A DNA stretch of 64,000 nt from a virus, in IMG/VR virus record IMGVR_UViG_3300032805_000003, positions 24,939 through 88,938 of that record; one strand, 5' to 3'. A program made the translations under genes and the position numbers. The notes under the pieces are model-generated. The model did no database searches and had not been told where the DNA came from. It saw only the letters and a program-made list of their open reading frames with translations. Below, piece by piece: positions 1 to 13,520 of this stretch (position 1 is the first letter of the stretch; each line of letters begins with the position of its first letter).

Positions 1-498
1 GTCCGGGCCGCCGGCGTCCAGCGCGGCCGCGGCGGCAGCCGCCCAGTCATGGCGCGGGCCCGGGCCGTGGATCCGGCGCGACCAGTCCATCACCGCGAGC
101 GCGCCCGCGCTGGCCGACTGCCCGGCAGCCTGATAGCCGGCTAGCTTGCTGGCGACCCAGGCCAGGTCGTGACCGGAGACATCCGGATCAGCCCAGCCTT
201 CCAGGATCTTGTCCAGCGTCCGGTAGTAGGCCGGGCCGGTGGCCCAGTTGCCGTCCTGGTAGCGGGTGTCCGGGTCGGGCGGGACGACGCCGAGGACTCG
301 CACCAGCCCGCCCTGAACTCGGCTATGAACCCGGGGGGCGGTGGCGTAGATCTCGCCGGTGGCCTGCACGTAGGAGACCCGCCAGCGGGGCCAGTCGTGG
401 CCTTTGACGGTCCAGTTGACGCCGTAGTCGGCTTCGCCGGACAGCATCCGGTCCTTGTTCGCGTTGTAGAACTCGCCGAGCGAGGGATAGGTCTGCAC
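1..498 (-). CDS. Hypothetical protein, runs off left edge of window
   Basis: Manual translation: AAGGGAG RBS then GTG at 498, MQTYPSLGEFYNANKDRMLSGEADYGVNW..., open to base 1. Confidence 0.75.
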   Translation of the reverse strand, partial: MQTYPSLGEFYNANKDRMLSGEADYGVNWTVKGHDWPRWRVSYVQATGEIYATAPRVHSRVQGGLVRVLGVVPPDPDTRYQDGNWATGPAYYRTLDKILEGWADPDVSGHDLAWVASKLAGYQAAGQSASAGALAVMDWSRRIHGPGPRHDWAAAAAAALDAGGPD

Positions 499-520
499 GG
501 AGTTGCGCTCCCTTGTCTGG

Positions 521-1210
521 TCAGTGATCTGGGTTGTAAAGGTCGAACAGTGCAGCCTGGTTGTTGACGGCTTGCTGCCAGCCGAGCACCACCGGCAGGT
601 ACCGGTCGGGCTGGCGGGTCTGGACGAGGTAAGTTCCGTCAGCGGTGTCGCATCCGATCGCCTCGGCGTACTTGAGCCGTCTGAAGGAGTTCACCCGGCC
701 CATGTGGACGGCCTTGCCGCGTGTCTTCGCCTCAGCGACCAGACGGCGGGCAGCTGGCCCGAGCTTCCACGCGTCGTCGCCGCCGACGAACAAGACATCA
801 AAGTCGTCCCACGGCACGATCAGGTCTTCGAGCCCGTTCTGGGCGACCAGCGCGGCCGGATAGCCGATATGCCGGATCCAGTCGAGCATGCGCGCAGACC
901 GCTGGAGGGTGGCTGCGGCGTCGTACAAGACGTCGGGGGCGACAGCGAAGAACGCGCCGCTGGTGTCCGGATCGCAGAAGTCCGACCCTTCGGCTGCCCA
1001 CAAGTCCTGTAGCAGCCCCAGGTACTTTTCGTCACCCGGGTATCCGGCGCCTGCGCGGCCGTCTTTCCCTGGCCCGCAGCTGTTGTCGACGCACCACAGC
1101 GCACCGTCGGGCAGCTTGTTGCCTGCTCGCGGAGTGATGATGCAAGCGAGCGATCCAGCGGCCATGGCCGCGCGGACCCCCGGGGTTGAGGGGTTAGCGA
1201 AGTACAGCAT
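521..1210 (-). CDS. DpdA-like / tRNA-guanine transglycosylase-like protein (putative DNA 7-deazaguanine insertase)
   Basis: MLYFANPS start; motifs WCVDNS, FAVAPDV, VAQNG, LFVGG, VHMGRVNS, CDTADGT typical of the actinophage TGT-like family; adjacent to QueF-like gene. Confidence 0.7.
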   Translation of the reverse strand: MLYFANPSTPGVRAAMAAGSLACIITPRAGNKLPDGALWCVDNSCGPGKDGRAGAGYPGDEKYLGLLQDLWAAEGSDFCDPDTSGAFFAVAPDVLYDAAATLQRSARMLDWIRHIGYPAALVAQNGLEDLIVPWDDFDVLFVGGDDAWKLGPAARRLVAEAKTRGKAVHMGRVNSFRRLKYAEAIGCDTADGTYLVQTRQPDRYLPVVLGWQQAVNNQAALFDLYNPDH

Positions 1211-1472
1211 CGGGTGCTCCGTCTTGAACTTCCACCGACCAGCGGCCGGTGTGCCAGCGGGTGGTGACCGTGCCGCCGGCTGGAAGAAGCGCGGCGATCC
1301 CGGCGGTGTAGTCCTCATGGCTGATGGGCTCGGCAGACAGCCCGTCGATTTGGGCGCCGAAGGCGTGCAGTTCCGGCGCCGGGCCCGCCAGCGTGATCAC
1401 GACTTCGCCGTGGTCGGTTTCGGGCTTGTACGGGCACTGCTTCACGACAGCGGTTCGCAGGATGGTTTTCAC
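1194..1472 (-). CDS. QueF-like T-fold protein (preQ0-modifying enzyme)
   Basis: CP-x5-D-x-G-x-V-x-I...ELH...ISHE mirrors QueF/QueF-L catalytic Cys, Asp and (F/S)HE motifs; 92 aa single T-fold. Confidence 0.65.
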   Translation of the reverse strand: MKTILRTAVVKQCPYKPETDHGEVVITLAGPAPELHAFGAQIDGLSAEPISHEDYTAGIAALLPAGGTVTTRWHTGRWSVEVQDGAPDAVLR

Positions 1473-1807
1473 CGGACGCCTCCGTGCCAGACGGTCCGGT
1501 CGACGTCGTCGGCCAGGTCCGGGCGGATCAGCCGCAGCCGGGTGTGCAGCCGGCGGTACTCGCCCAGCAGTTCGGCAGCGTCGGCTTCTGCCTGCTCGGT
1601 TTCAGCCTGGTAGGTGGCCCGGTTGGTGGTCGCCCAGCCGCGTTCCCGCTCGTTCTCGGGCAACGGCCTGGCCAGCATTCGGGTCAGCTGGGTCCGGCGG
1701 GCTGCGGCGCGGGTTTGCGCCATCCGGGCGTCGTAACCGGCGGCGAGCGCTTCGTTCGCCAGCGACAGTGAGGACACCACCAGCCGGTCCACATTTATCA
1801 ACGTCAT
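1469..1807 (-). CDS. Hypothetical protein
   Basis: ATG at 1807 (MTLINVDRL...), stop overlaps next start. Confidence 0.6.
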   Translation of the reverse strand: MTLINVDRLVVSSLSLANEALAAGYDARMAQTRAAARRTQLTRMLARPLPENERERGWATTNRATYQAETEQAEADAAELLGEYRRLHTRLRLIRPDLADDVDRTVWHGGVR

Positions 1808-1817
1808 GTTGGCCAGC

Positions 1818-2105
1818 CTATAGCGTCCCGGAAACCTTGGCAACACGTATTTGCAGTGCCTCGATCGCCTGGTTCTGCTCGGCCTGAATCTGCTGGCAGC
1901 GCTCGCACCGTTTCGCGTGAGCGATCATCATGAGCACCGCTGCCGGGGTCACATCCGGCGACAACCCCGGCAGCGGCACCGCCCGCCGCAACCCCGGCAA
2001 CACGGTCACCGCACGGCGCAACGACGCCGCCTCGACGCCGCACAACCCCCGGATGACCGCACCCTTCGGCTGGTCGACGATCCGCAGCGGAAGCTCGCCT
2101 TTCAC
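1818..2105 (-). CDS. Hypothetical protein (HxxxCxxC motif)
   Basis: ORF coupled by 4-bp overlap within leftward operon. Confidence 0.55.
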   Translation of the reverse strand: MKGELPLRIVDQPKGAVIRGLCGVEAASLRRAVTVLPGLRRAVPLPGLSPDVTPAAVLMMIAHAKRCERCQQIQAEQNQAIEALQIRVAKVSGTL

Positions 2106-2452
2106 GACTCACCGCCGTCCAGCACGGCAGCGACAGCACGGCCGAAGTAGATGAACGGCGGATGCTTGCGACCGAGGTCACCGAGGCCCTGGCGGATGCG
2201 CTCGCGTTCAGCTGCGGTTCCTTCGCTGACGCCTTGCAGGTAGCCCAGGTCGCGGGCGTGCCCGGGTTCGGTGACGGTGATGAGCGGCGCGGCGGCAACA
2301 GCGGCGCGGCGGCCGGCTTCCAGGAGGACTCCCAGCAGCGCAGACGGGTTTCGCATGAGCAACGCCGTCGCTTCAGGTTCGTAAGCCTGAAGCGCGACGG
2401 CGATAGCGGTGCAGGCGGCGGCGGGTATGGCCTCGGCCGGGATGCCGGTCAT
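2102..2452 (-). CDS. Hypothetical protein
   Basis: ORF with 4-bp overlaps at both ends. Confidence 0.6.
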   Translation of the reverse strand: MTGIPAEAIPAAACTAIAVALQAYEPEATALLMRNPSALLGVLLEAGRRAAVAAAPLITVTEPGHARDLGYLQGVSEGTAAERERIRQGLGDLGRKHPPFIYFGRAVAAVLDGGES

Positions 2453-2973
2453 GGCTGGTACCGGATCAGCGGCTCGTCGCCGCGGACGAACAACGGATGC
2501 CGCGGCTGGCCGTTCGCAGTCAGCCCCAGGCAGTGCAGCTGGACGCCGTCCAGCAAAGCGAGGACGTCCCGGGCGCGGCCGCGGTGAGCGCCGTGCAACC
2601 CCCAGGCTGCGACGACCACCGGCGACGACTCAGCGCGCGCCTTGATGACCAGGTTGTTGTCCGGTCCTTCGGGCGCCAGGTGCTTGATCATCACACGCGG
2701 GTGGGTGGCCCGCAGCGCGAACAGATTCACCACCGCCAGCCCGTCATACCCCCAGGCTTTGCTGTAGGCGATGCACCGGCGGATCGTCGGATCATCGGTG
2801 TTCTCGTCGGCGGTCGACGGGTTCAGCATGATCCAGGTCACGCAGTACGGCTTGGGACCCCAGTGGCGGGTCAGGTCGTACCGGTACACCCGGTCCGGGC
2901 TGAACACCGCCCGGCTGGACTGGCCGAACAAGTCCAGATCTAGTCCGGTCGTCTCGACTGGGGCGGCGGTCAT
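2449..2973 (-). CDS. DUF1643 domain protein
   Basis: YRYDLTRHW, WIMLNPSTAD, DDPTIRRC, VNLFALRAT, PRHPLF motifs; ATG at 2973 overlaps dnaN stop. Confidence 0.85.
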   Translation of the reverse strand: MTAAPVETTGLDLDLFGQSSRAVFSPDRVYRYDLTRHWGPKPYCVTWIMLNPSTADENTDDPTIRRCIAYSKAWGYDGLAVVNLFALRATHPRVMIKHLAPEGPDNNLVIKARAESSPVVVAAWGLHGAHRGRARDVLALLDGVQLHCLGLTANGQPRHPLFVRGDEPLIRYQP

Positions 2974-4112
2974 CGGGAGTTCTCCGTCCGCATCGGCATC
3001 ACCAGCGCGCGGAACTGGTCGTCTTCGGCGCGGGTGACCAGCGCCGGCTTGAACGACCCGGTCATCCGGATCCGGACCTGCCCGGGCACTGGCAGCAGGG
3101 CGTCTCGCAGCAGTTCGGGCCCGAACCCGATCTCCAGCGGCCCGCCTTCGGTCTTGGCCGGCAAAGATTCGACGGCGGTGATCGCCGCGCCGGTGCCGGC
3201 CCGCAGCGTCAGTTCCCCGTCGCCGACCTTCAGATGGATCGCGGTCTTGCGCTCGGCGGCGATCCCGACCCGCTTGATCACCTGAACGAGCCCGGCCGCG
3301 TCGGCTTCGACGACGACCGGGAACTCCCGGTTCTTGCCCATCAGCGACCGGTAATCCACGAACTCGCCGCCGGCGCACCGGATCGTCACCCGCCGGCGCC
3401 CCAGGTCGCTGGCGAACCCGGCCAGCCCGGTCCCGTCCGAACCCGGATCCGGCAGGCTGATGGTGATCTCGCCGGCGTCGGGCAGGCCTTTGACGAACGC
3501 CGCCAGCGCTTTGCCCGGGACCAGCGCCGTCCGGGGATCCATGCCCGGGTCAGCCGGGGTCCAGGGCAGGTCGACGGTCGCGAGCTCGTACCGGTCGGTG
3601 GCAGCCAGCACCAGCCCGGTCTTGCTGGCTTCCAGGCACACCGTCGTCAGCACCGGCAATTCGGTGTCGCTGCTGACGGCGGGCAGCACGCTGGCGACCG
3701 CCTGAGCGAACCCGGCCGGCGAGCACGACCCGGCCGGCGCGGAAGTCTCCGGGAACTGCGGGTACTCGTCCAGCGGCAGGGTGTTCAGCGAGAACTTGCT
3801 GGTTCCGCACGCCAGCCGGAGCATCGCGCCGTCCAGCTCGAGGTCGGCTGGCTTGGCGGGCAGGCTGGCGGCGATCGTGGTGAACAGCCGGCCGGGGATC
3901 AAGACGGCACCGGGTTTGTCGCTGCGGACACCGGTGACGCTGATCTGAGCGCCGTTGTCGCCGTCGAACGCGTCGACGATCAGCGTGCCTTCGCGGGCGG
4001 TCAGCCGCAGGCCGGCGTAGACCGGGACGTACGGGCGGGCCGGGAGCGTGCGAGCAGCCCACGCGGTAGCGCTGGCCAGATCGCTCTGGCTGATGGTGAG
4101 TTTCACGGTCAT
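2970..4112 (-). CDS. dnaN: DNA polymerase III beta sliding clamp (phage-encoded)
   Basis: 380 aa; ARTLPARP..PV, LIPGRLF, ATDRYELA, GEFVDYRSL, KPAL, ALVMPMR match actinobacterial DnaN. Confidence 0.9.
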   Translation of the reverse strand: MTVKLTISQSDLASATAWAARTLPARPYVPVYAGLRLTAREGTLIVDAFDGDNGAQISVTGVRSDKPGAVLIPGRLFTTIAASLPAKPADLELDGAMLRLACGTSKFSLNTLPLDEYPQFPETSAPAGSCSPAGFAQAVASVLPAVSSDTELPVLTTVCLEASKTGLVLAATDRYELATVDLPWTPADPGMDPRTALVPGKALAAFVKGLPDAGEITISLPDPGSDGTGLAGFASDLGRRRVTIRCAGGEFVDYRSLMGKNREFPVVVEADAAGLVQVIKRVGIAAERKTAIHLKVGDGELTLRAGTGAAITAVESLPAKTEGGPLEIGFGPELLRDALLPVPGQVRIRMTGSFKPALVTRAEDDQFRALVMPMRTENSR

Positions 4113-4642
4113 GCTGCCTTTCCGGTTGTGATCGGGCTGGGCCAGAATCTGTTGACCTGCTGTCCGGACATGCGCAGCCAGCAGCGGACGTGCCAGCGGC
4201 TGTAACCGAGGGCAGCCATCTGCCGGACTGCTTCAGCGCGTTCGGCGCTGGTCATCTGGACGTCGTCGCCGGCGATCACCCGGTCGACAACGGCCTGGTC
4301 GAAAAACAGCTGGTTCACGCGGTGACCAGACATCCGCAGACGTTTAGCGACCTGCGAGCGGGTGAAACCACGGCGCGCCATCTGCCGGACCGCTTCAGCG
4401 CGTTCCAGGCGGGTGAGCGGGACGTCTTCGCCGTCGATCGCCCGTTCAACCGCGACGTCGTCGACGAAAGCGTCAGGCGGCGGCCAGCCGCCGGCGCGGC
4501 GGGCAGCTGCGCGGGCTGCCCGGCAGATGTCATCGAGCGGTTCATGGCGGTACCGGTGCCGGGCGATCGCCGCGGCGGTGCCGCAAGGCTGGATCCACCG
4601 GGCGCCGTAGCGGGTGTCGTCCCGGCGCTGGTTCCGGATCAC
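4109..4642 (-). CDS. DNA-binding protein with two tandem HTH-like repeats
   Basis: N-terminal PCGT..A..RH...CR motif; two ~50-aa copies of ERAEAVRQMA..G...LRMSG..VN. Confidence 0.65.
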   Translation of the reverse strand: MIRNQRRDDTRYGARWIQPCGTAAAIARHRYRHEPLDDICRAARAAARRAGGWPPPDAFVDDVAVERAIDGEDVPLTRLERAEAVRQMARRGFTRSQVAKRLRMSGHRVNQLFFDQAVVDRVIAGDDVQMTSAERAEAVRQMAALGYSRWHVRCWLRMSGQQVNRFWPSPITTGKAA

Positions 4643-4938
4643 TGGTCACCACCCATCGCGGCCCGGACCGCGGCGATCCCCCGCCGGGACGCCTCCGCTT
4701 GCCTGGGATCCGGCTGGGCGGGCCGGCGCGCATGCAGCGGGTTGCGGGACGCTTCCGTCAGATCACGCGGGCCGGCCTGCTCGTCGACCATCAGCCGGAC
4801 GGTCTCCTGCAAGATCCGGGGCCATGGCCAGCCGGCGGAACGGACAGCGCCGATCGCGCCGGCGAGCCGGTCCCGGTCCCAGTCCGGCCGGACTGCGGCG
4901 GCCAGGTCGATCAGCTGGAGGGTGGCGACTTCGATCAC
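4639..4938 (-). CDS. Hypothetical protein
   Basis: Coupled ORF with RPDWD motif, downstream of replication genes. Confidence 0.6.
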   Translation of the reverse strand: MIEVATLQLIDLAAAVRPDWDRDRLAGAIGAVRSAGWPWPRILQETVRLMVDEQAGPRDLTEASRNPLHARRPAQPDPRQAEASRRGIAAVRAAMGGDQ

Positions 4939-5498
4939 GGTTCGCTCCTTCGTGGCTGGCGTCGTGATTCGGCGGCTTGCCGGCGCGCGATCGCTTGCGG
5001 GCTTTCGATCGCCCGCCGCCGGGCCGGCCCTAGGATCTGCCTGAGTTCTCCGAACGCGGCCCGCAGCGACGCGGGCGGCCCGTTCGTTCGCATCACCGGC
5101 GCGGCGAGCGCCCGGAACGCGCTGGTGACCGGCAAAGCGTGGCCGTCGCCAGCGCGCCGGATGTTCGCCTGCAACGCAGCCTGGAAAGCTGGCGGGTTGT
5201 CGGCCAGTTCTGCGGGCGGGTCGTCGACGACCGACTTCTTGATCCGTTCGGCGCGGGTTGCCCTGACCCGGCGCCGGATGTCAGCGGGCATGATCCAGTC
5301 CCGCGTTTCGCGGTAATGCGCCTGGACGGCTTGCGCGCAGTCGGCGTAAGTCAGGTCGCCGATCATCTCCAGCCAGAACCCGATCACGGCGTTGCGGCCT
5401 TCGACGTCGTCTTCGTCCGGCGGCTTGCGGTTGTCCGCGAGCGCCATCAGGCCGAGCAGTTTGCCGACTTCGCCGGGAGTCATCCGGGGCTGGTTCAC
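4935..5498 (-). CDS. Putative helicase loader/inhibitor-like protein (G39P-like)
   Basis: MTPGEV..LL...W...IGDL.Y.D...AV..HY......MPADI pattern; directly downstream of initiator. Confidence 0.55.
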   Translation of the reverse strand: MNQPRMTPGEVGKLLGLMALADNRKPPDEDDVEGRNAVIGFWLEMIGDLTYADCAQAVQAHYRETRDWIMPADIRRRVRATRAERIKKSVVDDPPAELADNPPAFQAALQANIRRAGDGHALPVTSAFRALAAPVMRTNGPPASLRAAFGELRQILGPARRRAIESPQAIARRQAAESRRQPRRSEP

Positions 5499-6448
5499 CG
5501 GCCCGCGCCCCCTTCCGCCTCGAAACCGAGCCCGGCGTCCATCCAGCCGCGCGCCCGGTCCGGCGCTGACGGTGAGGCAGGCCTGCTGCCGTTGCGCTGT
5601 CCGGCGCCCCGGATTTCGCCGAGGGCGACGGTGATCGTGCCGCCCGAGACCGGCCGGCGTTCGCGGGCGAGCTTGTCGAGTGCCCGTGCTACGTCGTTGC
5701 GCGGAAGCCCGTTGGCGATGGCGGTGCGGATGACGCCGCGGATGGCCAGGAACGGCTGGGCGGTTGCGGACTTGTGGTGTTCCCAGAACGCGGCGGCCAG
5801 CTCGTCGGCGACGTCGTGCTTGCGCTGTCCTCGCCGCTGGGGTGCAACTGGTTGCACCCCAGGGTTTTCGGCCGCCGTGGTTGTACCTGAGCTATCTGCA
5901 CCTACAGGTACATCAAGGGGGTTGAGGTTAGTAGTTAGTTTGGGTGCAATGGGTTTCACCCCAGGCGACGCTGTATTGCACCCCAGCAAATCGGACACTT
6001 GAGGTGCAGTGGGTTGCACCCCAGGGGATTCATGCAGGTCAGAGCCGGTTTGGGGTGCAATAGGTTGCACGTCAGCCTGGGGTGAATCTGGTTGCACCCC
6101 AAGGTCAGCCTGGGGTGCAACCGGTTGCACCCCTTGGGGTGAACCTGATTGCACCCCAGCGACGCGCTCCATCGCCAGGTCATAGACCATCGGACGACGG
6201 TTCTGCGGCAGGTCCCCGGTCAGCGACTGGTCCCCAGGACGGATCAGGCCGAGTCCGACAAGAAGCGCCAGGTCGTACCGCACCTGACGCTGGCTCTTGC
6301 GGGCATAGCCGCTCAAGGTGAGAGCGCTCGGGAAGGCTCCGCGGCCTTGCTTGTCGGCGTGGTGGGCGAGGCCGAACAGGGAGCCGACGCACTGCGGCGG
6401 AACGTCTGGCGCGTCGCGAAGCGCCCACACGATCGCCTCGTAGCTCAT
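5495..6448 (-). CDS. Replication initiator protein (N-terminal winged HTH, lambda-O-like layout)
   Basis: MSYEAIVWAL...LAHHADKQGRGAFPS..TL; central GVQPxxPQ repeats encoded by DNA iterons. Confidence 0.8.
   Translation of the reverse strand: MSYEAIVWALRDAPDVPPQCVGSLFGLAHHADKQGRGAFPSALTLSGYARKSQRQVRYDLALLVGLGLIRPGDQSLTGDLPQNRRPMVYDLAMERVAGVQSGSPQGVQPVAPQADLGVQPDSPQADVQPIAPQTGSDLHESPGVQPTAPQVSDLLGCNTASPGVKPIAPKLTTNLNPLDVPVGADSSGTTTAAENPGVQPVAPQRRGQRKHDVADELAAAFWEHHKSATAQPFLAIRGVIRTAIANGLPRNDVARALDKLARERRPVSGGTITVALGEIRGAGQRNGSRPASPSAPDRARGWMDAGLGFEAEGGAGR
5839..6157. repeat. Replication origin: about 8 palindromic 22-bp iterons GGGGTGCAA-N4-TTGCACCCC
   Basis: Copies near 5839, 5941, 5965 (partial), 6001, 6052, 6079, 6112 (perfect GGGGTGCAACCGGTTGCACCCC) and 6136; AT-richer stretch at about 5880-5945. 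Confidence 0.8.
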
Positions 6449-6644
6449 GCTGCATCCCGGCGGGGAAGCCCCGCCCGCCGCATGGCGCTCATTGTCACCG
6501 ATTCCCACCGTCTGCTTTTTCCGTTTCGCGTACTTGTGGTATGCCTACACTACACGTTGCATCGTGGCAACGCTACCTGTAGGCGAATGCCGTGTAAATA
6601 TGGCATACTGGTGACGTGGCCTAGAGACGTGCCACGATTAGGGA

Positions 6645-6899
6645 GTGACCGACGACATGGCTGGAGTGCTCGCCGCGCATCAGGCGTATCTGGACGCCCC
6701 CGACGAAGCGAGAGAACTACTCGCCCGCCGCCGCGCCCAGCTTGGTCTTGCGGTCGCCCGGGAACGAGGCCAGGGCACATCGCAGAGAGCCATCGCTGAA
6801 CGACTCGGCCGGACCCGCGAGCAGATCCGCCGTTATCAGCAGGCCTACGACGACTGGCAGCATGACCACCCTGACGAGCAGCTAGAAGCAGTCGGCTAG
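6645..6899 (+). CDS. Small HTH regulator (opposite strand to early arm)
   Basis: SQRAIAERLGRTREQIRRY helix-turn-helix; AGGGAG upstream; AT-richer divergent intergenic region. Confidence 0.7.
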   Translation: MTDDMAGVLAAHQAYLDAPDEARELLARRRAQLGLAVARERGQGTSQRAIAERLGRTREQIRRYQQAYDDWQHDHPDEQLEAVG

Positions 6900-6902
6900 C
6901 CA

Positions 6903-7250
6903 TCAGGCAGCCGCCTTCCAGCCCAGGTACTTGCGGCGCGTCTTCCGTCCCAGATGCCAGTGCCCGGCCGGGCACCGGTACTCGTTCAGCCCCTGACCTT
7001 TCCGGTGCTTAGGCATCCGCCGGATCGCGGCCCTGGCGAGAGCCTGAGTCTCGTACCGGGTCTTCCACGGATGCAGGCACCGGCCAGTTTTGACCAGCCC
7101 GGCCAGCTCGGCTGGCTCGTCGTCCCGCTCGAGGCGGGCCAGCCATTGCCGGTAAGCAGCTTGACGGTCTTCAGCTTCGCGGCGGCGGCGGGCCCGCAGC
7201 ACCCGCAGCGCGCCGCGGTGCTGCGGGCCGGTGAAACGCGACATCTTCAC
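6903..7250 (-). CDS. Hypothetical zinc-finger-like protein
   Basis: C..K.RY...A...YRCPAGHWHL motif common in actinophage early genes. Confidence 0.6.
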   Translation of the reverse strand: MKMSRFTGPQHRGALRVLRARRRREAEDRQAAYRQWLARLERDDEPAELAGLVKTGRCLHPWKTRYETQALARAAIRRMPKHRKGQGLNEYRCPAGHWHLGRKTRRKYLGWKAAA

Positions 7251-7618
7251 ACCTCCGGCTGATAGTCGCGGCAGGCGGGCCACCAGACCCGGACGTCTGT
7301 CGCTGCACCGTTAGTGACCCGCACCGGGCGGCCGGTGACCGGGCCCGGCAGATAGCACTTGCCGTAGACCCGGTCGTGGTGCCTGAGCAGCTGGCGGAAC
7401 TGGCAACTGCCGCACCGCAACCCGGGTGCTGTCCGGTCAGCAGCGGGTGCGGCGTCTGGGTGCAACGGCAGCGGGAACCCCAGCGGTGACGACAGCGGGT
7501 GCCGGCCGCTGGCGAGCAATTCCGCCTGCCGCCGGGTCCGGCGCTGGTCTGCTGACTCATGCTCGGCAGGTTCAGCGGGCAGCCCGGGGTCGACGTGGAA
7601 CAGTTCAATCTGGCTCAT
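7247..7618 (-). CDS. Hypothetical Cys-rich protein with N-terminal QIELF motif
   Basis: HPL, CGSC, KC, WWPAC motifs; coupled ORF. Confidence 0.65.
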   Translation of the reverse strand: MSQIELFHVDPGLPAEPAEHESADQRRTRRQAELLASGRHPLSSPLGFPLPLHPDAAPAADRTAPGLRCGSCQFRQLLRHHDRVYGKCYLPGPVTGRPVRVTNGAATDVRVWWPACRDYQPEV

Positions 7619-7856
7619 CGCTTTCTCCGTGGTTCAGGTACGGCCCGATCCGGATAGGAGGCAGGCCGTCGATACGCGTGAGCTCGGCCGCCGACATGCC
7701 ATCGGGCGGCAGCGTCGGCGGCAGAGTGACGATCAGCGCGACGGCGGGACGGCTAGCGCCACCCCGGCGGCCGCGGCGAGCGCGCAGACGATCAAGCCAA
7801 CGGCCAGCCAGGCAAGTCCTCGTATGACGACCCGGGCGGTCTTGGCGGCGGCGCAT
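7605..7856 (-). CDS. Hypothetical protein
   Basis: ORF fills gap in leftward operon. Confidence 0.4.
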   Translation of the reverse strand: MRRRQDRPGRHTRTCLAGRWLDRLRARRGRRGGASRPAVALIVTLPPTLPPDGMSAAELTRIDGLPPIRIGPYLNHGESDEPD

Positions 7857-7857
7857 C

Positions 7858-8175
7858 TCACTGCGCCTCCCGGCCGTGCGCGCCGGCCTTCAAGAACTGG
7901 CCGGTGACCGGATCCCGCGGCCGTTCAGCGGCGAGAGCCGCCAGATGCGGGTTGCGAGTGCTGCGCGCTTGCGCTGGCCGGTCAGCAGCCGGCCGGCTGA
8001 TCGGCGGCGCGGTCTTGTCGATGCTGGCCAGCAGCTGGCGCAGCGGGACCAGCTTGGGTTCCGGCGGCTTCCGGCGCGCGGGAGCGGTCCGCAGCCGGCC
8101 AGCGACCAGCCCGCCCGCCAGGACCAGGTTTTCGACGACCAGCCCGCCGGCGACGACGACACCGGCGGCGCTCAC
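7858..8175 (-). CDS. Hypothetical protein with N-terminal hydrophobic segment
   Basis: GTG at 8175 overlapping upstream stop; C-terminal RDPVTGQF motif. Confidence 0.55.
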   Translation of the reverse strand: MSAAGVVVAGGLVVENLVLAGGLVAGRLRTAPARRKPPEPKLVPLRQLLASIDKTAPPISRPAADRPAQARSTRNPHLAALAAERPRDPVTGQFLKAGAHGREAQ

Positions 8176-8441
8176 GCTGGCTCTCCCGCCTGGTCGCCAG
8201 AGCCGGCGACCTGGCCGGCTGCAGCGGTCTGGACGGCGGCGAGCTCGGCCGCCCGGCGGGCTAGCGCTCGTTCGAGGCACGCTGCAGCCTCGTCCGGGTT
8301 AGTGCTGGTGGCGGTCGGGCAGTAGTGGGTGCCGTCGCCGGGTGACACCATCTCGCCGGCGGGGCGCTCCAGCGCGCACAGCGAGCACGCAGCCGTCTCA
8401 GCTTCAGTCGTAGACAAGGTCACGGTCGTAGACATGATCAC
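8172..8441 (-). CDS. Hypothetical protein (CxxC...C...C)
   Basis: GAAAGG RBS, coupled ORF. Confidence 0.55.
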   Translation of the reverse strand: MIMSTTVTLSTTEAETAACSLCALERPAGEMVSPGDGTHYCPTATSTNPDEAAACLERALARRAAELAAVQTAAAGQVAGSGDQAGEPA

Positions 8442-8752
8442 GGTCGTTGGTTCCTTTCTGGTTCGTTCACAAGCGGGTAGCGGGTGAGCATGCAGAAGGC
8501 GATCGCCAGCTGGTCTTCCTGATCGGGAGTCAAGACGTCGCCGTCGACTGGCCGGCCCGGATGCTGCGCCGGCGTTGGCGGCAGCGATGTCATCGGCGGC
8601 TTGGACGCCGGCGGCGGCGCGGGTGGAAGGCGACGGCCGTGGACCGCGTTGACTGCCCGGGTCGCCAGGATCGCGACGCAAACCAGGCCGCCGAGGATCA
8701 GGTAAGCGATCACACAGCCGACCGAATAGTCGTACGGGGTGACGGTGTTCAT
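8438..8752 (-). CDS. Putative membrane protein
   Basis: One hydrophobic helix VGCVIAYLILGGLVCVAILA. Confidence 0.55.
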   Translation of the reverse strand: MNTVTPYDYSVGCVIAYLILGGLVCVAILATRAVNAVHGRRLPPAPPPASKPPMTSLPPTPAQHPGRPVDGDVLTPDQEDQLAIAFCMLTRYPLVNEPERNQRP

Positions 8753-9309
8753 GCGACCTCAGCCCCTTCAGGCGGGCTGAACGTGTACCGGCCGTCAGCC
8801 GTCAGCCATCGCCCGGGCCGGCCGGTGCCATAAGGCTTGACCGCGACCAGCAATGGTTTCTGGCCGGAGTCGAGCAAGAACCCCCGGTCTTTCATCCGTT
8901 TCTCTTCGCGGGTGGCCGCGCCATGGCAGCCGGTGTACGGGTCGCCGCACAACAGGGCCGCGTTCTGGATCGTGTTCCGGGTGCGAGATCCGCCCATTCC
9001 CCGGTTGCACCGGTGATGAACCTGCCCGCCGTACAGGCCGAGCCAGCGGCCGCAGCATTCACAGCGGGCCTCAAGCGGGTCACCGTCGCCGGCGCGGGTC
9101 CGGACCGCCAGCCGGATCTCCGGGGTGAACCCGGTTTCCCGGCGCCGGGGACGTCGCTGGCCGGCCGGGACGGTGACCTTAGCGGGAACCAGCGGTGACC
9201 CGAACCCGCGCCATGGCGGTGCTGTCCCGCGCGCGAGCCCGGTCTTCCTGGCCGGGCCTTCGCCGCGGGGCATCGGCTTGGTGCGCTGCGGCAGGCCGGA
9301 GCGTTTCAC
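8749..9309 (-). CDS. HNH endonuclease
   Basis: CECCG...QVHHRCNRGMGG...NAALLCG...GCH. Confidence 0.8.
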   Translation of the reverse strand: MKRSGLPQRTKPMPRGEGPARKTGLARGTAPPWRGFGSPLVPAKVTVPAGQRRPRRRETGFTPEIRLAVRTRAGDGDPLEARCECCGRWLGLYGGQVHHRCNRGMGGSRTRNTIQNAALLCGDPYTGCHGAATREEKRMKDRGFLLDSGQKPLLVAVKPYGTGRPGRWLTADGRYTFSPPEGAEVA

Positions 9310-9968
9310 CGGCCGGCCCCGTACGGCTTGATCAGATCCCAGATGTCGCGGACCTGGCGGGCGTCGGACAGGGCTTCATGGATCTGGTAGGCGCTCAAGT
9401 CCAGCCCGAGCGCGGTCGTGATCTCGCTCAGGCTGGTCGACTCGGGCAACGGCGGCCCGGTCTTGAGCAGGCCGAGGCCGTGCGGGTCGTCCCACGGGAC
9501 AGTGTCCGGCAGCTGGCCGGCCAGGTGCCGCTGGCCGGCCAGCCATCCCAGGTACAGGCTGCCGATGTCAACCAGCCGGTAATCCCACGCCGGTGCCTGA
9601 CCGTTGGCTCGCAGGAATTTGTCCAGGAACCCGGCGTCGAACGCCGGATTCTTGGCGACGAACGCCGCGTCCGCGGTCAGCGCAGCGAACGTCCGGGCTG
9701 TTTCGCGCGGGTCAGCCCACGTACAGCCTTTGGTGCGCTGGTAGTACCGGCCGATCCGCAGCGCGGTCGTCTGCGCGTGCTCCATCGACGGAGGTTCGAC
9801 CAGCCACCAGTATTCGCCGTCCAGGTAGGCACGGGCTTCTGGACAGTCCGGGCGGATAGTCGCCCACGGTTCGCGGACGATCAGGCCGATCTCCCACAGA
9901 TGCCCGGTCAACGGCGAGTCCGTAGTGGTCTCGACGTCGACGAAGCACACTCGCTCGGGCAGTTTCAT
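9306..9968 (-). CDS. DnaQ-like (DEDDh) 3'-5' exonuclease
   Basis: FVDVETT, NPAFDAGFL, HEALSDAR. Confidence 0.85.
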   Translation of the reverse strand: MKLPERVCFVDVETTTDSPLTGHLWEIGLIVREPWATIRPDCPEARAYLDGEYWWLVEPPSMEHAQTTALRIGRYYQRTKGCTWADPRETARTFAALTADAAFVAKNPAFDAGFLDKFLRANGQAPAWDYRLVDIGSLYLGWLAGQRHLAGQLPDTVPWDDPHGLGLLKTGPPLPESTSLSEITTALGLDLSAYQIHEALSDARQVRDIWDLIKPYGAGR

Positions 9969-11659
9969 GCGCTCATCACCGCCAGCTCGTTCACCAGGTC
10001 AGCCAGCTGACGGCCATGGCCGGCGGCGGCAAGGTCGAACAACGCGCCCTGCGGCCCGGCCTCAGCGACGGTCTCTGTGGCGGGCCCGGGCACCGGGGCG
10101 GTCTCGGGCTCGGGATCCGGGTCGTCGTCCGGGTCGTCGTCCGGGTCGCCGGCGAGAGCGTCCAGGAACCGGGCGACCCACGCCAGCCCGGCCGGGTCCA
10201 GGACGTACTGGGCGCGGGTGACCGCGACGTAGGCGAGCATCGCGTCAGTGCGCGGGATCTTCGGCTCGCTGCCGTCGCGGGACTTCGGCTCGCGGAAGTC
10301 GTCAGCGATGACGACGTTCCGCCATTCCCGGCCCTTGGCCTTGTGGGCGGTCGAGACGATGACGTCTGCTTTGCGCTCGTCGCTGGTGACCCGGTTCAGG
10401 ATCGCCAGCAGCCCGTCCGTGCCGTGCGAGTCGACCAGGTCAGCGAACACCTTCAGGTCCTGGCCTTCGGGGTCGTTCTCGACGTAGTCCTGGAACTGGC
10501 CCCAGGTCGTGAACCCCATCAGTTCCGGGTGTTCTACCGGCCGGCCCGCCTTCAGGTCCTCGGCGGCGCGGGTGAGGGCGATCAGTTCGCCGACACCGCC
10601 GGCCATCGCGACTTTCAGGCCCTTGTCCAGCAGGCCGATCGCCTGCTTGATCACTTCCGCGTTGGTCCGGCACAAGATCGCGTCCGGCTGGCCGAGGGCG
10701 ACTTCACCGACCCGGTCCTGGATCTTGTCCCAGCCGCGGAGCGGCTTGGTGACGCCCAGGATCGTCAGCCACTGGTTGCCGACTTCGGCGATCGCCGGCC
10801 CGAACCGGAACGACTGGGTCAGCGACAAGACGGTGACCCCGGACTGCTGGCTGAAGTCGCGCATCGCGTCGGTCGCGCCGCGCCAGCCGTAGATCGCCTG
10901 GTTCTGGTCACCGACCATGATCAGCTGGGTGCCGTACCGGGCCTGCTCGCACACCATCGCGGCGACGCAAGGGTTCGAGTCCTGCGCCTCGTCCAGCATG
11001 ATCACGTCGCCGGGCAGGTGCGGGTGGGTCAGCGCGTACGCCTTCAGGTAGTGATCATGGGTGACCGGGAACCGGCCGTGCGGGTGATGCGGGCTCCCGC
11101 TGCCCAAGATCGCTTCAGGCTGGGTGATGTCGTTGTCCCACGCCTTCTGGGCGATCGGCGGGACGATCTTCCGCAGCGCGGCGATCTCGGCCGGGTCCGA
11201 CAGGGACTTGATGTCGGACGGGACATGCCAGCCGGTGATCTTCTCGTCAGCCGAGTAGCAGAACTTGGCGATCGTCTGCCGGACCACCGAGGCCAGCTGG
11301 CCGGGGGCCAGGACCCGGTCGGCGGTCAGGCGGGCCGGGCCGAGGATCCCCAGCACTCTCGCCAGCTGGAGGCCGGTCATCCGGCCGCCGCCGATCCGCT
11401 TGGCCATGTCGATCATCGGCCGGTACGCCAGCCCGTGGCTGGTGACGCACCTGGCGTTGACCGGGAACGACCGGGCGGCGTCGTCTTTCGCGGACCGGTT
11501 GTAGGCGATGTACAGCACCTTGATGCGCGGGTTGGCGCTGGCCAGCAGCCTGAGTGTCGACGTCTTGCCGGTGCCGGCGTACGCGCCGATCACCAGGTTC
11601 TTGCGCGCCAGGTAGGCGTCGATGATCGCCTGCTGTTCCGGGGTGGGGGTGAAGGTCAC
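9965..11659 (-). CDS. UvrD/Rep-like superfamily 1 helicase
   Basis: AYAGTGKT, LDEAQD, VGDQNQAIYGWRGA, LTQSFRFG, STAHKAKGREW, YVAVTRA. Confidence 0.93.
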   Translation of the reverse strand: MTFTPTPEQQAIIDAYLARKNLVIGAYAGTGKTSTLRLLASANPRIKVLYIAYNRSAKDDAARSFPVNARCVTSHGLAYRPMIDMAKRIGGGRMTGLQLARVLGILGPARLTADRVLAPGQLASVVRQTIAKFCYSADEKITGWHVPSDIKSLSDPAEIAALRKIVPPIAQKAWDNDITQPEAILGSGSPHHPHGRFPVTHDHYLKAYALTHPHLPGDVIMLDEAQDSNPCVAAMVCEQARYGTQLIMVGDQNQAIYGWRGATDAMRDFSQQSGVTVLSLTQSFRFGPAIAEVGNQWLTILGVTKPLRGWDKIQDRVGEVALGQPDAILCRTNAEVIKQAIGLLDKGLKVAMAGGVGELIALTRAAEDLKAGRPVEHPELMGFTTWGQFQDYVENDPEGQDLKVFADLVDSHGTDGLLAILNRVTSDERKADVIVSTAHKAKGREWRNVVIADDFREPKSRDGSEPKIPRTDAMLAYVAVTRAQYVLDPAGLAWVARFLDALAGDPDDDPDDDPDPEPETAPVPGPATETVAEAGPQGALFDLAAAGHGRQLADLVNELAVMSA

Positions 11660-11671
11660 GGGTATCGTCTC

Positions 11672-11730
11672 CCTGTAGGTTTATCTAGGTTATGTAGTCA
11701 AACCTACAGTCGGTCACGAAACCTCGTCAA
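11672..11730 (-). promoter_or_regulatory. Leftward sigma70-type promoter with GTAG-N6-CTAC palindrome, upstream of helicase
   Basis: Minus strand TTGACG-N18-TAGGTT-tgactac; CTGTAGGTTT/AAACCTACAG inverted repeat. Confidence 0.7.
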
Positions 11731-12432
11731 CAGGTTTCGCTGATGTTTCCGCGTCGTCGTGCGGCGCGTCGTCGTGATCGGGGTCCGGCGATGTTCCGTC
11801 GTCGTCGGTGAACCGGTCCGGCGGAACCGATCCCAGGTCCGCGTGCGGGTCGACGAGCTCGCCGTCCTCCGTCAGTTCGCCGCGCCGGATCGCCTCATCC
11901 AGCGACAGCCACGCCTTCGGCCCGGGCCGGTACGAAAACCGGCCAGACGGCTCGTAGCGGGTCACCACAGCGACTTGCTCGCGTTCCCCGCTGCGCCGGC
12001 TGGCGACCTTCCCGTCGTTCTCCTCCAGCTCGGCCTGATACTGGGCCCGCACACCGGGCTTGATCCGGGTGCCGACCAGATGCGGGAACCGGGCCGCGAG
12101 TCCCGGTCAGCACCGGGCAGCAGATAGTCCTCCAGGTCGCCGGAATCGTTCCCGGCGGCGATCGCCAGAAGCGAGTCCTCGTCGACCGTGAACGTCGTCG
12201 TGCCCTTGTGAATCGAGATCGTCCCGATCTCAGTCCCGTCCGGCAAGATGACAGCCAGAGTCTTGTCCGCCTTCCGCCGCGCCGCGGCGAACACGATCTG
12301 CGCAGCCGCGCGAGCGCCTTCTTTCGCCCGTTCTGCCTGATCGGCCTGCCCGGTCTTGATCGCGACCCGCAGCGCGTGCCGCTGCAACACTGCCGGAGTC
12401 GGCGGCGTGACAGTCTCGTCCTGGCCGCTCAT
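11714..12432 (-). pseudogene. Frameshifted hypothetical gene downstream of ERF
   Basis: Protein-like sequence runs to ...LLPGADRD then continues in another frame as LAARFPHLVGTRIKPGVRAQY... near 12100. Confidence 0.55.
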
Positions 12433-13520
12433 GACTGCTGCGCCTTCGCCTGCTTGGCGGCGGCCGCCAGCTGTTCCCGCCGCTTGGCGATGTCACCGAA
12501 CAGCGCGTTGGCGGTCTGCGGGGTGATGTCTTTGCTGGCGATCGCCTGACCGATCTCGCGCTGTAGCTTCCGGACCGCGGCCTCGTCCGGGGCGTCCCAC
12601 AGCTTCGCGGTGAACTCCTTCAGCCATTCCGGGTTCTCGCCCGGGCCGGCCACCGGTTCCGCAGGCTGGCTGTCGCTGGCCGGCCCGGGCATCTGGGGCT
12701 CGGCGCCGGGGTCGCCGGTTTCAGCCTGCGCAGTCTGCGCTTGCGCCTTCAGGCTGTTCACCCGCGCTGTGATCGCGTTCGACAGCACGTCAGCCCGCGC
12801 CTCGTCGATCTGGCCGTCTTTCAGCTGCTGGCCGATCTCCCGCCAGACTGCGGTAGCGTCGTCACGGCCGGTGATCTCGTCGATCTTCGGCCTCCACGGG
12901 TCTTCCGGATCCAGCGGCCTGTGCTGCGGCGCGGGCCGTTCAGCTTGCGATGACTGCTGCTGGCGACGCGGCCGGTTCCCCGGCGCCGGGGCCGCTTGAT
13001 CGAACGACTCGCCGCGGCGGGACTGGCGGCGCGAAGAATGGTCCTGGCGCTCGGTCCCGGCACCGTCCAGGTCCTCTTCGGCGACGATCCCGGTGACCGC
13101 GCAGAAGCAGTACCGCTTGGCGTAGGTGATCGCCCCGCCCAGCTTCTGCAGATCACCGCCCGACAGGGGGAAGAAGCCGCGTTCGCTTTCGCCGGACGGG
13201 CCGTGCTTGAGCTTGTACCGGAGACCGAACTGGCCTTTGCGCATCGTCGGCTTGGCGATGTACGCCAGCCCGTGCCGGCCCAGCAGCGGAAGCCCGGCGC
13301 GGTGGACGGCGGCCAGGTCGGCGTAGCTGTAGCTGAAGCCTTGCTTGCCGTCTTTGCCGGGGATCGTCGCGTCTTTGTTCTTGTGGACTTCCGGCAGTTC
13401 CATCTGGAACGCCGCGAGGGCGTCGGCCAGGGTGTCGTGCTTGACGGCGGTCATCGCTGGCCGCGCCGGCGATGATTGCTCGGCGGCGGCGGTCTTGCTG
13501 CCGTTGGTGGTGGTGCTCAT
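12429..13520 (-). CDS. ERF-family single-strand annealing recombinase
   Basis: ALAAFQ, YSYADL, GRHGL, QKLGGAITYAKRY, GIVAEEDLDG. Confidence 0.88.
   Translation of the reverse strand: MSTTTNGSKTAAAEQSSPARPAMTAVKHDTLADALAAFQMELPEVHKNKDATIPGKDGKQGFSYSYADLAAVHRAGLPLLGRHGLAYIAKPTMRKGQFGLRYKLKHGPSGESERGFFPLSGGDLQKLGGAITYAKRYCFCAVTGIVAEEDLDGAGTERQDHSSRRQSRRGESFDQAAPAPGNRPRRQQQSSQAERPAPQHRPLDPEDPWRPKIDEITGRDDATAVWREIGQQLKDGQIDEARADVLSNAITARVNSLKAQAQTAQAETGDPGAEPQMPGPASDSQPAEPVAGPGENPEWLKEFTAKLWDAPDEAAVRKLQREIGQAIASKDITPQTANALFGDIAKRREQLAAAAKQAKAQQS

Follow-up and report, generated by a model that had tools for sequence, protein, structure and literature searches.

Terminal LF/LW peptides on DNA-acting proteins of a temperate actinophage-like virus as candidate docking tails for the beta sliding clamp

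The DNA analysed here (hereafter the window) is a 64,000-nucleotide stretch, bases 24939-88938 of the complete, 88,938-bp IMG/VR virus record IMGVR_UViG_3300032805_000003, and it encodes a beta sliding clamp (DnaN) together with several proteins that carry a short (Q)-x-x-L-F/W-(D) peptide at or near one terminus. As read from the sequences, the same peptide ends at least five unrelated DNA-acting folds and travels with phage clamp genes. We regard it as moderately probable that these terminal peptides are clamp-docking tails, which would use any beta clamp to deliver proteins that modify or process DNA to freshly copied stretches; clamp binding by the peptides, with all its downstream consequences, is what we infer from the patterns described below. 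Clamp docking is suggested because the L and F/W residues are fixed and their flanks variable at the extreme termini of proteins with unrelated folds, because the peptides match proven actinobacterial clamp motifs in DnaQ and ImuB, because phage dnaN loci are enriched for methylases with LFD tails, and because dnaN overlaps a DUF1643 gene, whose counterpart in the viral locus L017 starts with an LF peptide.

Conservation of the terminal peptides

Peptides of the forms QL[SD]LF and QxxLxF make up the bacterial consensus for beta-clamp binding, and such peptides bind the beta clamp. The first-pass annotation of the window had pointed to four candidates, in a DpdA-like enzyme (QAALF), a 123-amino-acid (aa) protein (QIELF), a helicase (QGALF) and a DUF1643 protein (LDLF), and all four proved to lie exactly where it had placed them (Table 1). 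Two actinobacterial hooks are comparable. In mycobacterial DnaQ, a C-terminal Q[Y/L]ALF is described as necessary for the DnaN pull-down (PMC11348249), and ImuB is described as binding the clamp via 352-QLPLWG-357 (PMC10421592). As in these two proteins, the phage peptides have Q-x-x-L-F/W at the end or in a disordered tail, and ALF as well as PLW forms occur in the DpdA-like family.

The DpdA-like protein belongs to phrog_15826, which is annotated as 'unknown function', while its phage homologues are labelled DpdA-like tRNA-guanine transglycosylase (TGT). Its C-end reads ...NNQAALFDLYNPDH. The tail was counted in the best 120 of 2,585 homologues, and Q..[LM][FWL] was found within the last 35 aa in 95 of them, nearly always 2-10 aa from the end, against a chance background of 0.023 per 35 aa. 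Q and L were fixed and the last position was split between F and W (46/48), whereas the +1, +2 and trailing residues varied. About ten of the 25 homologues without the strict motif retain xxLF minus the Q. More distant homologues, from 80 viral contigs, have the strict motif in 33 cases and an LF or LW of any kind in 46. Both tail forms, QGALF and Q.PLW, occur in the family, with QGALFDL as the consensus. The AlphaFold2 (AF2) model of the protein is a TIM barrel with a predicted local distance difference test score (pLDDT) of 92.1, in which the motif sits past the last helix, in a lower-scoring tail (pLDDT 59 for the last nine residues).

The DpdA-like tail does not follow the presence of a phage clamp gene. 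Five isolated phages that encode a DpdA-like homologue all lack a PF00712 clamp, and the tail is kept in three of them (Sonali, QDALFPV; Aoka, QPQLF; GreaseLightnin, RPALFDF). Of the 80 viral contigs, only five have dnaN at a distance of 10 kb or less from the DpdA-like homologue. The DpdA-like tail is therefore independent of a phage-encoded clamp and, since phages that lack a clamp gene retain it, the hook would most likely serve any beta clamp, that of the host included.

The 123-aa protein belongs to an unnamed viral family with 453 representatives at E<=1e-3, listed in the Atlas as a viral hypothetical family, with no named relatives; searches of Pfam, PHROG and NCBIfam gave no match. Its open reading frame (ORF) is coding-like in the GC (guanine plus cytosine) content of the three codon positions (0.74/0.56/0.81), and residues H40, C69, C72, C88 and C116 are invariant in the family alignment (A5). 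The N-end was scored in 135 usable 50%-identity representatives. In 128 of these, LF stands 28-40 aa upstream of the G.HP anchor, mostly within residues 4-8, with the consensus x[QETD]x[AGT]LF[DE][VML]; the control expectation was 0.09 per 40 aa. Relatives of the protein adjoin DpdA-like genes in other contigs (L076:6608-6895 and L065:4309-4617). The L076 relative starts ...GQLDLFPDPG, a textbook QLDLF, and the L065 relative starts ...DDQPLFSGYEPP.

In the DUF1643 family, [LMI][FW] was found in the N-terminal extension of 38 of the 120 best homologues, with the consensus [PT]DLFG, and LL.G-like forms were present in 43 more. The ATG of the DUF1643 gene in the window overlaps the dnaN stop (ATGA), and as judged from this overlap, DUF1643 is translationally coupled to dnaN.

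Three further early proteins with Q-x3-LF ends are encoded 4.8-7.4 kb before the window start, on the minus strand (G000:C1:17499-20184). They are a PF02384 N6 DNA methylase of 367 aa, located 5-6 kb before the window and ending in DDQIPTLF; its neighbour, an 83-aa Cys-rich protein with the C-end TTQAALTLF; and a third small protein of 107 aa with the C-end TQDPRLFEYGGYDA (…QDPRLFEYGGYDA). A tblastn search with the PF02384 methylase against isolated phages gave no match.

Phage dnaN loci and LFD-tailed methylases

The presence of DnaN, as claimed in the first-pass annotation, was borne out by profile searches: the protein matches TIGR00663 over its full length (7.9e-52; 176.4 bits, with a cut-off of 137.65) and contains the clamp domains PF00712, PF02767 and PF02768. 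Its closest solved relatives are actinobacterial clamps (8dj6, 7.5e-58; Mycobacterium tuberculosis 3rb9, 8e-55), and the ATDRY, KPAL and VMPMR segments are kept. The replication-type genes of the phage comprise the clamp, the helicase, a DnaQ-like exonuclease, a RecT-size protein and a replication initiator-like helix-turn-helix protein. A family search of the record found neither PolA (PF00476) nor the Pol III alpha subunit (PF07733), and the phage clamp must therefore work with the host machinery.

Homologues of dnaN were found in 153 phage records. A scan of the viral contigs with the single DnaN protein returned no relative; repeated with alignment A2, built from four phage clamps, the scan yielded 36 viral dnaN loci. 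The window dnaN and loci L015-L021 form a clamp subfamily in which QFIDYR/EFVDYR and FQSQYL/FGPELL replace the usual [DE][YF]P[KD].R and FNPxYL. No homologue of the DpdA-like protein, the 123-aa family or the helicase was found within 10 kb of any of the 36 dnaN genes, and DUF1643 was present in one locus.

A total of 116 viral loci (36 dnaN and 80 DpdA-like) were scanned for C-terminal Q.{2,3}[LM][FW], with ORFs called by a crude filter on GC content at third codon positions; four of the 116, with GC <0.55, were dropped. When DpdA-like genes were left aside, the motif rate was 7/797 at dnaN loci and 5/1669 at DpdA-like loci (P 0.066). Among eight matches other than DpdA-like proteins, Pfam identified three PF01555 DNA methylases and one weak Mom-like protein. 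The PF01555 methylase in L015 is the gene directly after dnaN.

A tblastn search with these methylases returned 19 homologues with complete ends, 15 of which have [LM][FW] in the last 20 aa. The tail consensus is P[TS]LFD[LF], with examples such as …MPTLFDLEGL…, …PSLFDLIAD… and …QPALFDDEAIA, and three of the four methylases without an LF or LW tail have LLD-type variants. The PF01555 identity was confirmed by Pfam for 11 methylases (3 + 8). An LFD-tailed methylase was located within 10 kb in 14 of the 36 dnaN loci, as compared to 5 of the 80 DpdA-like control loci (odds ratio 9.5, Fisher P 3.5e-5). The 14 loci are L015 (9685-12309), L017, L018, L020, L021, L023-L026, L029-L031, L035 and L044; dnaN and the methylase gene are directly adjacent in L015, L018 and L020. 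In L017 the gene order is dnaN, methylase, DUF1643, and the DUF1643 protein starts ...SDTLFGLD. The link of phage dnaN with LFD-tailed methylases is new here.

Proposed clamp docking and alternative explanations

If the peptides are clamp-docking tails, they would dock in the cleft that receives peptides between domains II and III of a bacterial-type clamp, and clamps left on freshly replicated DNA would recruit the modifying or processing proteins, which would then act on nascent DNA. Such a hook would be generic and should fit the host clamp and the phage clamp alike. If phage DNA were preferred, the cause would lie in which DNA is replicating, not in a private clamp, and the phage clamp, which comes without a phage polymerase, would most likely add clamp capacity or a landing pad at forks run on the host polymerase. 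A complex prediction of phage DnaN (alignment A4, 31 rows used) with DpdA-like residues 195-229 (alignment A3), made for this one pair with a single clamp chain and without controls, gave scores of 0.30 and 0.11, the mark being 0.32, and speaks neither for nor against docking.

Phage DNA modifications, among them 7-deazaguanines and methylation, are described as post-replicative (PMC10516641). If clamp docking is correct, the hook would explain how modifying enzymes reach new DNA fast enough to beat host restriction, like DNMT1 on PCNA. It would also give a function to the many orphan actinophage dnaN genes (homologues in 153 phage records), and DUF1643 and the unnamed four-Cys viral family would join the clamp clients.

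Several observations weigh against clamp docking, and most of them speak equally for terminal LF peptides that are functional in another way, by contacting another hub (such as a helicase, an SSB-associated factor or RNA polymerase), by serving as a degradation tag, or by closing the protein's own fold or oligomer. The hallmark first residue Q is often missing, being present at -3 in only 24 of the 128 peptides of the 123-aa family and in only 4 of the 19 methylase tails. In the DpdA-like protein, the motif abuts the last helix, which ends at residue 217. In very many homologues of the DpdA-like protein (P0008-P0118) and of the helicase (P0245-P0265), the motif is directly followed by a terminal Ala-Ala, Val-Ala or Ala-Ser, as in QxPLWRAA and LFGAAA, and such ends might constitute an additional signal, for instance a protease tag, or reflect mere composition. 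LF is as frequent in the DUF1643 N-end as its density within the domain would predict (0.29 per extension), and in the AF2 model (pLDDT 93.7 overall) the LDLDLF stretch is predicted at pLDDT 79-84, with a strand at residues 6-9. The DUF1643 peptide may accordingly be structural, but it is probably a clamp-docking motif. Taken over all carriers, a role apart from the clamp appears fairly improbable: a structural role tied to one fold is disfavoured by the recurrence of the peptide, N- or C-terminal, in no fewer than five unrelated folds, and both the match to proven clamp motifs and the genomic association with phage dnaN point away from it as well. A more sceptical position holds that the motifs are functionless in this phage, as inherited decoration or by chance, and it applies above all to the helicase QGALFDL: Q..[LM][FW] follows the helicase core in only one of the 120 best homologues, the query itself. 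The motifs of the first-pass annotation were thus conserved in the DpdA-like and 123-aa families, in part in DUF1643, and not in the helicase. Motif counts within this single proteome say little against chance, and the weight of the case lies on conservation. The excess of Q..LF over the whole proteome is marginal (five occurrences in 114 crude gene calls, a set outside which the 7247-7618 ORF falls, versus 2.1 in shuffles; P 0.055), and [LM][FW] within 20 aa of an end was not enriched (13 of 117 proteins versus 21.3 expected). Q.{2,3}LF within 30 aa of an end was found in 6 of 117 proteins versus 1.0 expected (P about 0.001), with a pattern that was widened post hoc, after the data had been seen; five of the six proteins fall in the 45-gene early replication/modification block, a placement that favours clamp docking. 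Absence of function is nevertheless very unlikely in our estimate, given the strong conservation in the other families. Moreover, the helicase 7-mer is identical to the DpdA-like family consensus and lies in an acidic, Pro-rich and disordered C-terminal tail, and a recent DNA copy as its source was ruled out by synonymous differences (19/33 bases identical). The helicase peptide is most likely a lineage-specific gain.

The first-pass annotation had proposed a phage-run clamp hub that could couple base modification to replicating phage DNA and spare the host chromosome. Clients would then prefer the phage clamp over that of the host, and modification would be confined to phage DNA. In agreement with such a private hub, the clamp is encoded without a PF07733 or PF00476 polymerase and so must have a different task, DUF1643 is coupled to dnaN in translation, and LFD-tailed methylases are enriched at phage dnaN loci. 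In addition, phage DnaN has diverged in two segments, with FGPELL for the FNPxYL and EFVDY for the [DE][YF]P[KD] of most phage clamps, a divergence shared with L015-L021 that could alter peptide specificity and likewise weighs against a generic hook; these positions presumably line or contribute to the peptide cleft, as in the E. coli clamp. The selectivity itself found no support. The DpdA-like tail is conserved in phages without a clamp gene (none in the five isolates, and dnaN within 10 kb in only 5 of the 80 contigs), the dnaN loci lack homologues of the four proposed clients within 10 kb apart from the single DUF1643, and the peptides resemble host-type motifs. Furthermore, the host loader puts the clamp on any primed DNA, so a phage clamp alone would not mark phage DNA. 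We therefore hold the private hub to be distinctly unlikely. A variant, speculative and in our view unlikely, is that in dnaN-carrying, polymerase-less phages the clamp is no processivity factor but a landing pad for marking and cleaning enzymes (the LFD-tailed methylases, the TGT-like enzyme and the UDG-like DUF1643 protein, UDG standing for uracil-DNA glycosylase) with private docking via the diverged cleft; self-marking would then follow the phage forks and escape competition from host clients.

The carriers of the peptide differ from the known bacterial clamp clients. They are a TGT-like barrel, N6/N4 methylases, DUF1643 and a four-Cys protein, rather than polymerases, repair factors or Hda, and their candidate hooks often lack the Q and usually have an acidic residue after the F (LFD). 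In eukaryotes, the maintenance methylase DNMT1 and the uracil glycosylase UNG2 bind PCNA by PIP (PCNA-interacting peptide) boxes behind the fork. These two enzymes parallel the methylase and the UDG-like DUF1643 protein of the phage, but with another clamp and another motif, and the analogy is one of function only. The idea of a phage DNA-modifying enzyme that rides a phage clamp and modifies DNA during replication has a counterpart in the T4 alpha-glucosyltransferase and gp45, although gp45 is a PCNA-like trimer and not a DnaN-type clamp. This T4 interaction is disputed: a 2025 preprint reports no co-purification in vitro or in vivo with C-terminally His-tagged enzymes (10.64898/2025.12.06.692756). 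Newly described non-polymerase clients of the beta clamp include phage Mu MuC, the Tn3 transposase (TnpA) and RecBCD (PMC12867686, PMC11417375, 10.1101/2025.08.20.671105). They use the host clamp, by way of a clamp-binding motif, for a job other than DNA synthesis, as is proposed for the phage proteins, but they act in late transcription, target choice and recombination, and none is a DNA-modification enzyme. In the literature found, the beta clamp is nowhere linked to DpdA, to DUF1643 or to enzymes of 7-deazaguanine modification, and the T4 pair is the sole precedent there.

Protein identities and genomic context

The families named in the first-pass annotation were recovered for DnaN, DUF1643 (PF07799) and the UvrD-like helicase, while the name 'DpdA-like' stands only as an annotation of homologues. 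Phage 7-deazaguanine DNA transglycosylases DpdA1-4 have been described (PMC10516641). The 229-aa protein resembles them in the labels of its homologues, but it has no Pfam family at E<=0.01, PF01702 and DUF6610 included, and the complete 88.9-kb record lacks QueC (PF06508), the one family searched for among the 7-deazaguanine synthesis genes folE, queD, queE and queC. A profile of 68 homologues searched against PDB by sequence found no TGT, and hhalign of the family against the canonical DpdA of Sonali gave a probability of 0.1 and no match. A six-frame translation of the genome contained no PF01702 match and hence no canonical TGT. Every sequence route to a TGT or DpdA identity (Pfam, NCBIfam, the PDB profile, hhalign and the PF01702 scan) was thus empty and was rejected.

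By structure, VIA-align of the DpdA-like model gave the archaeosine TGT 1iq8 (Z 14.3; root-mean-square deviation, rmsd, 3.0; 203 aligned), TGT 3unt (14.0), DpdA 7ui4 (13.2) and QTRT2 (13.1). The TGT structures had the longest alignments, but they were tied with PdxJ (Z 14.0), aldolases and epimerases, and Foldseek ranked generic TIM barrels first. Because sequence methods showed no relation to TGT or DpdA and the genome has no QueC or canonical TGT, base exchange by the 229-aa protein can be put forward only as a hypothesis. In the Arthrobacter phage Sonali, the DpdA-like gene lies beside a canonical DpdA, from which the LF tail is missing, and folE/queD/queE/queC. No 7-deazaguanine synthesis genes were seen in the neighbourhoods of the DpdA-like genes of GreaseLightnin and Aoka.

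The best fold matches of the DUF1643 model, though weak, were to UDGs, namely 2d3y (Z 5.8, rmsd 3.9, 135 aligned), 5gn2 (5.6), 6ail (5.5) and 1l9g (5.3). UDGs made up four of the top ten rows (135-144 aligned), all with Z <8 and tied with unrelated folds, and Foldseek returned nothing at E<=0.001.

Table 1. Features of the early region, with positions in the window
Feature	Positions	Strand	Remarks
DpdA-like TIM-barrel protein, 229 aa, phrog_15826	521-1210	-	phrog_15826 7.2e-66
QAALF C-terminal peptide, residues 218-222	545-559	-	directly after the last helix (201-217)
92-aa ORF	1194-1472	-	overlaps the start of the DpdA-like gene
DUF1643 protein, 174 aa	2449-2973	-	PF07799 1.5e-42, 145.2 bits (gathering score 22.5)
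LDLDLF N-terminal peptide, residues 11-16	2926-2943	-	protein starts MTAAPVETTGLDLDLFGQ; DLDLF without Q
dnaN, beta sliding clamp, 380 aa	2970-4112	-	TIGR00663 and three Pfam clamp domains
123-aa protein, unnamed viral family	7247-7618	-	LF[DE] N-end, basic RRTxRQ helix, G.HPL, four invariant Cys
QIELF N-terminal peptide, residues 3-7	7598-7612	-	protein starts MSQIELFHVD
DnaQ-like exonuclease, 220 aa	9306-9968	-	phrog_192 9.2e-15; start overlaps the helicase stop
UvrD-like SF1 (superfamily 1) helicase, 564 aa	9965-11659	-	PF00580 5.9e-15, PF13245, PF13604, PF13361; phrog_1967 1.6e-86
QGALF (in QGALFDL), helicase tail	10037-10051	-	23 aa from the end, within ...GPQGALFDLAAAG

The record has 127-bp direct terminal repeats and a GC content of ~68%, and the genes from 1 to 13520 of the window lie on the minus strand. 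An integrase, two ParB-like proteins, an N6 DNA methylase, an ArdC-N-like protein and a NADAR protein are also encoded. Because of this gene content and GC content, the virus is assigned as a temperate, actinophage-like, high-GC virus. A search of isolated phages for near-identical DNA gave no match.

Neither terminus of the DnaQ-like exonuclease bears an LF peptide. Other C-ends recur among the helicase homologues, ...SPATARAMALAQI (or PAVARAMSLGQL) and ...GREVGHER (in P0243, P0249, P0255, P0267, P0274-P0276, P0278, P0280 and P0283-P0311), and these may be different docking motifs. The 92-aa ORF that overlaps the start of the DpdA-like gene had no Pfam, PHROG or NCBIfam match; 4 of the 80 viral contigs contain a homologue of it no more than 10 kb from the DpdA-like gene.

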